From Escherichia phage skuden: DNA of 64,000 nt. Every line of letters starts with the position of its first letter. The stretch's first letter is position 1. Shown here in pieces: positions 30,408 to 54,938 of this stretch. Made by a program: the position numbers and the translations under genes. The notes under the pieces were generated by a model. It saw only the letters and a list, made by a program, of their open reading frames with translations, was not told the DNA's origin and searched no databases. The stretch lies in the sequence record MN850585.1. One strand, given 5' to 3'.

Positions 30408-38405
<7,998 letters not shown>

Positions 38406-38406
<1 letters not shown>

Positions 38407-38645
38407 TACATTTTTCCTGCTCTTCTAAGTTCGTTGTAAGCAATTTCCTCTTTATACGACCTCTGAATCTCAAGAAATTGTCTCAATGATAATAAATCAG
38501 AGAATGTCATAGCAAAGAGTTGGTCAAGTGTTTCTTTACACCCTTCCATACCATAAATAGCAAGCACAAATTTCATCTCGTCTGCTTCTTCATAGGTTGC
38601 CTCTACAGCAGCATCAGTTAGTGGTGTCTGTAGAGTGTTACCCAT
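38406..38645 (-). CDS. tail assembly chaperone, -1 frame extension ORF (GT-type)
   Basis: ORF in the -1 frame relative to the upstream chaperone; reachable from the slippery site with no intervening stop. Confidence 0.6.
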
Positions 38646-38647
38646 GT

Positions 38648-39046
38648 TTACTGAGAAGTTAGGCTTTTGAAAATGCTTGCTTCGAAAAAACTTCCGAAGT
38701 TTGCCTCCAGCGCAAATGCTAAGTAATCAATAAACTCACCGTAGTTTGCTTGGAAGTACGTATCAATATTAAGTGGGAAGTCATCAACAGTTGCCCCTTG
38801 AAATAACAGGGTAGCCATTTCTTCAAGGTTAATTTCTTCAATTCTGTCAAAACAAGCTTCAACAAGTTCTTTAAATGGAACCATTGGAGCTTCTTTCTTA
38901 CCCTTGTCAGTCAGACTTGACAGCATCTGTGCAAAGGTTGGAACAACAATTTTACCCAACTTCATAGACATCTTAATACCATCTCTTGCCCCAAGCAGAA
39001 CGATATTTACTTTCTTACCATTAATTACTCTAGATTCTGTTTTCAT
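38648..39046 (-). CDS. tail assembly chaperone (G-type)
   Basis: 132 aa between tail tube and tape measure; contains slippery heptamer. Confidence 0.6.
   Translation of the reverse strand: MKTESRVINGKKVNIVLLGARDGIKMSMKLGKIVVPTFAQMLSSLTDKGKKEAPMVPFKELVEACFDRIEEINLEEMATLLFQGATVDDFPLNIDTYFQANYGEFIDYLAFALEANFGSFFEASIFKSLTSQ
38684..38690 (-). other. candidate -1 programmed ribosomal frameshift site U UUU UUC
   Basis: Minus-strand heptamer T TTT TTC with in-frame codons UUU UUC, 13 codons before the chaperone stop. Confidence 0.6.
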
Positions 39047-39072
39047 TGTGATTCCTTAATACTTTTAAAAGA

Positions 39073-39107
39073 AACAAAAAAGGGGAAGACCTTTTAAAGT
39101 CTCCCCC
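39073..39107 (-). terminator. rho-independent terminator after the tail tube gene
   Basis: Plus aaacaaaaaaGGGGAAGACcttttaaaGTCTCCCCC; minus RNA hairpin followed by U-run. Confidence 0.5.
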
Positions 39108-39119
39108 TTATAGGATTTA

Positions 39120-39566
39120 TTAAACACTTGACGCTGGAATTGTAGAAGTGTAGTCTAGCTTCTCACAACCAAAAATCCAAGTTTTAGAGTTCTGGTCACG
39201 ACCAAGTTCAATCTGCGGTAATTCCTGCAACCAAGCATTAATACCAGTTGCCAGAACAGAGCCTGATGGGTCGTAGATTACGAAGTTAGAAGAGATATCT
39301 TCTTCAAGTTCCATATTGTCTTGTTTAGCTTGAATTGCAGAAAGCATCTGGTTAGAGAGAGAAGTCTGCATTAACTCAATCTCAATAGTACCTGTCTTGT
39401 CTGCATTTCTTGTCAGAGCAACTTGACCACCTGCACCAACAACTGGTGTCACAAGTGGTGATGTTCTCTGTAGACGCAAGAATGAATCTGGGGCAAAGCC
39501 TTCAATGGCAATACCATTCCAGCTACATACAACGTCTTTAGGGGAATATTGCTGATACATAGCCAT
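39120..39566 (-). CDS. tail tube protein
   Basis: 148 aa immediately downstream of the sheath gene. Confidence 0.55.
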   Translation of the reverse strand: MAMYQQYSPKDVVCSWNGIAIEGFAPDSFLRLQRTSPLVTPVVGAGGQVALTRNADKTGTIEIELMQTSLSNQMLSAIQAKQDNMELEEDISSNFVIYDPSGSVLATGINAWLQELPQIELGRDQNSKTWIFGCEKLDYTSTIPASSV

Positions 39567-54854: not shown

Positions 54855-54861
54855 ATTAATT

Positions 54862-54938
54862 TGGTCTCTGTTGGAGGACTTGAACCTCCGGCCTTACCGC
54901 CCCAAACGGAACGCTCTACCAAGCTGAGCTAAACAGAG
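54862..54938 (-). tRNA. tRNA-Pro (anticodon UGG)
   Basis: Acceptor CTCTGTT/AACAGAG, D-arm GCTC/GAGC, anticodon loop TTTGGGG, T-arm GGAGGTTCAAGTCCTCC. Confidence 0.7.

Follow-up and report, generated by a model that had tools for sequence, protein, structure and literature searches.

Do the two open reading frames that lie between the tail tube and tape measure genes of Escherichia phage skuden (sequence record MN850585.1) encode two separate proteins, or are they a single gene that the ribosome reads in two ways? We analysed a 64,000-nucleotide stretch of this record, hereafter the window, in which the features discussed below all lie on the minus strand unless stated otherwise. From the sequence and its relatives, a programmed -1 ribosomal frameshift on a U_UUU_UUC heptamer very probably yields two tail assembly chaperones from this locus, a short protein G and a longer fusion GT.

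Over the 5 kb around the pair, about 200 GenBank phages share 95-99% identity with the window; they belong to the genus Felixounavirus, the Felix O1-like myophages, whose hosts are Escherichia and Salmonella. The sheath gene (40934-39582, 450 aa, PHROG 205) is followed by the immediate upstream neighbour of the pair, the tail tube gene (39566-39120, 148 aa), whose product matches the 'Tube protein' of PDB 9mt4_P with E=2.9e-96. The first frame of the pair, ORF1 (39046-38648), encodes the 'G' tail assembly chaperone, a 0-frame product of 132 aa and 14.8 kDa that matches Pfam PF21822, Phage_TAC_15, over residues 9-124 (71 bits, gathering threshold 22, E=1.7e-19) and PHROG 1613, 'tail assembly chaperone' (E=2.9e-48). 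The second frame, ORF2 as annotated (38645-38406, 79 aa), falls in PHROG 4963, and a Pfam scan at E ≤ 1 gave no match for it. Residue for residue, ORF1 and ORF2 are the Felix O1 proteins AAQ14792.1 and AAQ14793.1. Downstream lies the tape measure gene (38406-36196, 736 aa, Pfam TMP_3, PHROG 4036), whose product matches PDB 9ndy_F, 'Tape measure protein (gp017)', with 1426 bits. The sequence-only reading had placed the pair between tube and tape measure, and since both neighbours match solved structures, that position is confirmed beyond synteny. A sequence and profile search of the PDB with the chaperone came back empty, which is in keeping with its expected absence from virions. Two plus-strand ORFs in the region, 38302-38439 and 38904-39059, were set aside as short shadow ORFs within well-supported minus-strand genes.

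The proposed shift site, U_UUU_UUC, occupies 38690-38684. The minus strand around it reads ...GGA AGT TTT TTC GAA GCA AGC ATT TTC AAA AGC CTA ACT TCT CAG TAA AC ATG GGT..., and T_TTT_TTC is in the X_XXY_YYZ phase: the Ser119 codon (AGU in the mRNA) contributes the first T as its third base, and the two codons that follow are Phe120 (UUU) and Phe121 (UUC). The earlier claim of an in-frame heptamer on the minus strand, 13 codons ahead of the ORF1 stop, is correct, the count being taken from Phe120. Translated in the -1 frame, the sequence that starts with the C of TTC encodes a 13-aa linker, RSKHFQKPNFSVN, followed by MGNT... of ORF2; the direct run into the 79-aa ORF that had been proposed is reproduced by translation. 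This extension (38683-38406) has 92 codons, the linker plus the 79-aa 'T' part, and its stop codon overlaps the ATG of the tape measure gene (ATGTAATG). With no stop codon in between, the -1 frame extends from 12 codons ahead of the heptamer to the tape measure start. The predicted GT would therefore consist of G residues 1-121, the 13-aa linker and the 79 aa of the T part, a protein of 213 aa and 24.2 kDa, with a predicted junction peptide of ...GSFFRSKHFQKP... Digestion with Glu-C is predicted to release ANFGSFFRSKHFQKPNFSVNMGNTLQTPLTDAAVE from the fusion, as against ANFGSFFE from the 0 frame. By sequence-level criteria, the arrangement supports a reading of the gene pair as the standard G/GT-type layout of tail assembly chaperone frameshifting.

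We infer the following course of events. Most ribosomes translating the chaperone gene would terminate normally and release the 132-aa G. A minority would slip back one nucleotide while two tRNA-Phe(GAA) are bound to UUU in the P site and UUC in the A site; the tRNAs would re-pair on UUU_UUU, the A-site exchange of UUC for UUU being a cognate pairing, and translation would continue in the -1 frame to give the 213-aa GT. By analogy with gpG/gpGT of phage lambda and E/E+E' of phage P2, G, alone and as the N-terminal part of GT, would cover the tape measure protein, while T would bring in the tube protein. Slippage at a low rate would fix the ratio of G to GT, and neither protein would stay in the virion.

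How readily might such a signal arise by chance? To estimate this, we counted in-phase XXXYYYZ heptamers in the 63 long ORFs of the window, which together offer 17,145 codon positions. Such heptamers occur 54 times, giving P~0.08 for any one of them falling within the 25-codon overlap, and the narrower T_TTT_TTY occurs in phase just once among the 63 ORFs, at 38690-38684 (P~0.0015). The doubt that these values leave is removed by the retention of the heptamer across relatives. The sequence-only reading had looked to homologues for a check on its proposal, and they uphold it. Our comparison set comprised GenBank relatives and 36 IMG/VR loci, about 50 related loci from nine lineages, down to ~28% identity, and T_TTT_TTC or T_TTT_TTT is in phase at the ..NF/Y-G-x-F-F motif in all of them. 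In every case a -1 extension of 87-124 codons follows, ending at or beside the tape measure gene. The heptamer is kept in Suspvirus and Mooglevirus (fusion-protein identity ~77-84%), in Yersinia phage P778 (49%), in the Erwinia phiEa21-4 group (44%), in Pectobacterium phage Arno162, in uncultured phages (27-34%) and in the Vequintavirinae phages Av-05 and phiTE (~28%).

A retained run of T could still be the work of the protein. If ORF1 and ORF2 encoded two separate proteins, with no frameshift and ORF2 translated from its own ATG by termination-reinitiation (TAA-AC-ATG), a coupling suggested for the chaperone pair of T4-like myophages, then the heptamer would be a mere by-product of the Ser-Phe-Phe that it encodes. 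We consider this distinctly improbable, in part from the choice of codons. The pattern NNT-TTT-TTY appears in 12 of 12 representative lineages, more than the amino acids demand: the first Phe is TTT every time, and the codon ahead of the Phe pair is AGT in nine lineages, ACT in one and TGT in two. Another invariant Phe in the same alignment is TTC in 10 of the 12. In the window, TTT accounts for 0.56 of Phe codons, and the NNT codons for 0.53 of Ser, 0.45 of Thr and 0.64 of Cys. From amino acids and codon usage alone, the heptamer would be expected in nine lineages with P~2e-5, a value that assumes independent lineages, an approximation. The same constraint is visible in the surrounding DNA. 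Synonymous variation at invariant residues is common over the first ~115 alignment columns and gone from the heptamer onward, and of all 30-nt stretches in 35 unique relatives, the one that holds the heptamer varies least. With the Erwinia phages, the DNA is still alignable only over 38701-38661, 41 nt at 92.7% identity that cover the slip site and ~20 nt downstream.

The start of ORF2 bears on the same question. Its ATG (38645-38643) lies 2 nt after the ORF1 TAA, as reinitiation would have it; two CDSs are given in all of the Felixounavirus GenBank records inspected, namely Sl26, humlepung, JLBYU32, BPS17S6, GEC_vB_NS7, wV8 and VpaE1_ev78; and a passage of PMC10885494 cites Vladimirov et al. 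2022 for a route to T4-like tail assembly chaperones that involves no frameshift. Against two separate proteins, the ORF2 ATG has no Shine-Dalgarno (SD) sequence: its anti-SD duplex is +0.7 kcal/mol versus a median of -6.1 for the 63 ORFs, weaker than 62 of the 63, with one in 63 as weak. In contig L015, which is 96% identical, the ATG is replaced by ATA. Counted in codons past the slip, the first ATG of the -1 frame comes at 13 in the window, 44 in Av-05, 45 in Arno162, 57 (of 94) in Erwinia, 60-62 in the distant relatives L042-L045 and 63 in phiTE, and Yersinia P778 has none, although in all of these relatives the -1 frame is open from the heptamer. Most lineages thus have no usable ATG for the T part, and at the equivalent place there is none in the Yersinia, Erwinia and Pectobacterium phages, the Vequintavirinae or the uncultured relatives. 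A further argument comes from the -1 linker FFR.K.FQKP, which lies upstream of the ATG and is invariant in relatives 44-84% identical; the 0-frame FFEASIFK that overlaps it is also conserved, so the invariance fits dual coding and is not proof of it. Taken together, the sequences indicate that the ORF2 ATG is probably not a genuine initiation site, or is a minor one. In the window phage, where this ATG follows the G stop by 2 nt, termination-reinitiation could also give some free T.

Granted a ribosomal slip, is it pinned to the heptamer? Five codons downstream, at 38672-38669, the gene has a weaker in-phase tetramer, U_UUC (AUU UUC), and a slip there would give ...FFEASIFQKP... where the heptamer gives ...FFRSKHFQKP... 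The tetramer U_UU.C is the second most shift-prone in E. coli when combined with a pseudoknot (PMC4066793), and the Felix, Moogle and Erwinia groups all keep the copy seen here. Tetramers alone, on the other hand, shift barely above background (PMC4066793), and U_UUC is absent from L042-L046, Av-05 and phiTE, all of which retain the heptamer. The -1 frame itself is also informative. Across lineages it opens 1-15 codons upstream of the heptamer, with three codons to spare in Suspvirus and Av-05 and a single codon in Yersinia P778 and L043. An opening so near the heptamer pins the shift to it, and we regard slippage at the tetramer as exceedingly improbable.

A shift on the heptamer could in principle take place one step earlier, during transcription. 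RNA polymerase would lengthen the run, U6 in the window and U7 in distant relatives, by one U, and the edited mRNA would be read in one frame to give the same GT. The site is a homopolymer, T6 in the window and T7 in L042-L046; a terminator scan flagged a weak hairpin plus T run at 38710-38694; and the insertion of one base gives the exact fusion, as the record of phage CL1 (OK040806) illustrates. That record has T7 instead of T6 and a single ORF that resembles GT, with the same junction and C-terminal part and 98.6% identity overall. The window's own 213-aa fusion was absent from a collection of 15 billion proteins. For bacterial RNA polymerase to slip efficiently, a run of about 8-9 or more A or T is usually required, and six is short for this. 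Moreover, the hairpin upstream of the T run is not conserved, and the run always keeps the X_XXY_YYZ phase and a pyrimidine end, as the rules of tRNA re-pairing would have it, though the phase also follows from the protein motif. Transcriptional slippage is, on balance, very improbable. The main doubt that is left lies here, between ribosomal and transcriptional slippage, together with free T in the window phage.

For the favoured ribosomal frameshift, we looked for elements that might stimulate it. The canonical -1 cassette has a stable, conserved structure 5-9 nt past the heptamer, and none was found at this locus. In the window, the first 64 nt downstream fold at -3.4 kcal/mol (z=+1.19), with no stem-loop or pseudoknot; RNAalifold on 13 sequences gave -1.34 kcal/mol, with pairs far downstream only; and an Rfam scan of 38300-39200 returned one sub-threshold match, on the other strand. 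Two candidates for more remote structure were rejected. A long-range helix between GCAAGCAUUUUC (38680-38669) and GAAAUUUGUGCUUGC (38574-38560) scores z=-3.4 in the window, and its 3' arm is not kept in the Erwinia and Yersinia phages; within the close group both arms are invariant, so covariation is uninformative. A hairpin in the T coding region, CUCUACAG...CUGUAGAG (CCCCG...CGGGG in Moogle), lies ~50 nt downstream, too distant from the slip site for an effect at the ribosome entrance.

Upstream of the heptamer the picture is different. An SD-like GGAGG (38708-38704), 13 nt upstream, has an anti-SD duplex of -9.3 kcal/mol, which ranks among the strongest 0.4% of 3,572 background windows and exceeds the phage's median genuine ribosome-binding site. 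Nine of 13 representative loci have a comparable element, and Yersinia P778, Erwinia phiEa21-4, L045 and phiTE lack it. Because a conserved (L/K/R)-E dipeptide is encoded at the same place, part of the element's retention may come from coding constraint; a role for it as an upstream stimulator of the dnaX/IS911 type is plausible. In E. coli, UUUUUUC shifts at 0.12% alone; adding the IS911 stimulators raises this to 0.89%, and the IS3 pseudoknot to 7.6% (Sharma et al., PMC4066793 supplement). Since the motif reaches only ~0.1% when no stimulator accompanies it, the efficiency of the shift here could be very low.

The Phage_TAC_15 family spans the Ounavirinae, the Vequintavirinae and uncultured relatives. 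Across it, U_UUU_UUY is conserved, often with an upstream SD-like element in place of a 3' structure, which is a modest extra yield of the comparison. It is conceivable, though on present evidence we would sooner doubt than assert it, that U_UUU_UUY at '..N[FY]G.FF' is an ancient recoding signal of the whole family, working with no 3' structure and boosted by upstream SD-like contact with the rRNA and possibly by the phage's own tRNA-Phe(GAA). If true, this would be a form of the tail chaperone frameshift that needs no RNA structure and is stimulated by an SD-like element.

The main value of the present analysis is the repair of annotation, the correct product being, by prediction, the 213-aa GT fusion. 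In the Felixounavirus and Vequintavirinae records inspected, the gene is split into two CDSs or the second is truncated, and outside Mooglevirus, Vequintavirinae included, the slip site is unannotated in the records inspected. Where the ATG of the T part is missing or late, genome annotators left the region empty or called truncated stubs; a 37-aa ORF in phiEa104 is one such stub. Some records carry wrong product names, 'head closure protein' and 'tail completion protein' among them. In the literature checked, we found no protein, ribosome-profiling or genetic demonstration of the frameshift for the Ounavirinae: the cryo-EM papers on Bas63 and phiTE treat neither chaperones nor frameshifting, and the main text of the PhageMaP essentiality paper on Bas63 has nothing on the chaperone genes. 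There is a practical side as well. Anyone recoding Felix O1-type therapeutic phages must leave the T6 run and its phase intact. Otherwise the locus adds a further well-conserved case to those that follow the textbook rule, and it raises no new question.

The frameshift is indeed an ordinary feature, already annotated in sister phages. The closest case is Citrobacter phage Moogle, whose orthologous genes (~80% nucleotide and ~77% fusion-protein identity) stand in the same order of tube, chaperone and tape measure and have the same T_TTT_TTC at the same GSFF motif. Its RefSeq entry gives a joined CDS, and the deposited product, YP_009145710.1, is identical to the 212-aa fusion that we built by a -1 slip at the Moogle T_TTT_TTC; Michonne and Mordin have an equivalent product, YP_009177317.1. 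The frameshift is stated, as a prediction, in two genome papers (PMC4319497, PMC5543628), Moogle's own among them. Moogle differs in belonging to another genus, in a 0-frame tail that is three codons longer and in a first -1 frame ATG that lies further downstream.

Beyond these sister phages, the locus is tied to the chaperones of lambda and P2 by its position and its proposed mechanism, with no homology that we could detect to the lambda gpG and P2 gpE families: PF21822 was the only Pfam match to ORF1 at E ≤ 1, and the PDB profile search was empty. The lambda gpG/gpGT pair, the subject of Levin (1993) and of Xu, Hendrix and Duda (2004, 2013, 2014), shares the gene position and the -1 direction; there G binds the tape measure protein and T the major tail protein, and G and GT are needed in a fixed ratio (review PMC5009743). 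Lambda, however, is a siphophage and uses a G_GGA_AAG heptamer. In the distant relative L042, a lambda-type G_GGA_AAG adjoins the U7 run. With dnaX and IS911 the locus shares the SD-like GGAGG, whose 13-nt distance from the heptamer is within the 6-17 nt that Sharma et al. searched (PMC4066793), whereas the 3' hairpin of those two systems is absent here and the SD-like element is not universal in the chaperone family. Phage P2 is a myophage case with experimental demonstration, the present frameshift being predicted from sequence. Its tail is contractile, its E and E+E' products are a short and a long protein with a shared N-terminus, their genes are flanked by the major tail gene and the tape measure gene, and the -1 shift takes place on a U6-type TTTTTTG with no downstream hairpin (PMC3091744). 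The P2 heptamer ends in G, where those described here end in C or T, and its products, at 91 and 142 aa, are smaller. A myophage site that works with no hairpin in P2 means that a structure-free slippery site such as the one in the window is not unusual for this class of genes.

The slippery heptamer T_TTT_TTC, which occupies 38690-38684 on the minus strand of the window, is also retained in phase by the tail assembly chaperones of Vequintavirinae, which are only about 28% identical and carry it at an NYGCFF motif. In the related loci of Escherichia phage Av-05 (L052, NC_025830) and Pectobacterium phage phiTE (L053, JQ015307), where the heptamer is found at positions 1773 and 1851, respectively, the -1 frame extends for 123-124 codons and its stop codon is exactly that of the small downstream ORF given in the annotation. 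A frameshift is annotated in neither of these two records, and both downstream ORFs were annotated as shorter, truncated versions of the open -1 frame.

Among closer relatives, Escherichia phage CL1 (L008, OK040806.1), also a Felixounavirus, has seven T residues at the slip site (1152-1164) instead of six, and therefore G and T are fused in a single 213-aa ORF, whose junction is the one predicted for the frameshift product, and a separate G is absent. The additional T could stem from a sequencing error in the homopolymer; if it is instead a real variant, the phage would yield GT only. A second natural variant concerns the start codon of ORF2 (38645-38406, minus strand): in a 96%-identical contig (L015, IMGVR_UViG_3300045988_004167) the ATG is replaced by ATA, 47-49 nucleotides past the point where the heptamer begins (1857), and the -1 frame is still open over 92 codons, a hint from natural variation that the ORF2 start codon may be dispensable.

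Downstream of the heptamer, a long-range RNA helix is predicted between 38680-38669 and 38574-38560 (minus strand), in which the 5′ arm GCAAGCAUUUUC begins 3 nucleotides past the heptamer and pairs with GAAAUUUGUGCUUGC approximately 105 nucleotides downstream, enclosing a local hairpin. The 124-nucleotide fold containing this helix has a free energy of -36.5 kcal/mol (z = -3.4), and an equally good fold was obtained in 1 of 200 shuffles. Both arms are invariant across the Felix, Susp and Moogle group; the Erwinia and Yersinia phages do not conserve the 3′ arm. On U_UUU_UUC, both ribosomal sites would hold tRNA-Phe(GAA), a species that the phage itself encodes (51033-51107, minus strand) within a cluster of 25 tRNA genes (50108-54938, minus strand).

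Between the tube and chaperone genes there is a strong intrinsic terminator (39109-39080, minus strand), consisting of a 13-bp stem, AAGGGGGAGAC...GGTCTTCCCCTT, followed by a T run, and a terminator is marked at the equivalent position in the annotation of phage wV8. It would lower the expression of the chaperone and tape measure genes relative to sheath and tube.

LR597663.1 (VpaE1_ev78) appears to be mislabelled: it gives ORF1 the name "Hc1 head closure protein" and ORF2 that of "Tc1 tail completion protein", and its "Tail sheath protein" is the tape measure gene. The 147-kb "Staphylococcus phage SA1" record GU169904.1 contains a 97%-identical copy of this Felix O1-type region, and a protein identical to the 132-aa ORF1 product is also filed under Staphylococcus hyicus; these are probably mixed or contaminated assemblies.

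The related IMG/VR locus L042 (IMGVR_UViG_3300025655_000030) holds four in-phase slippery heptamers within 12 codons (1827-1866), namely TTTAAAG, TTTTTTT, GGGAAAG and AAAGGGT, all of which lead into the same -1 frame of 87-98 codons. One of the four, GGGAAAG, is the G/GT heptamer of phage lambda.
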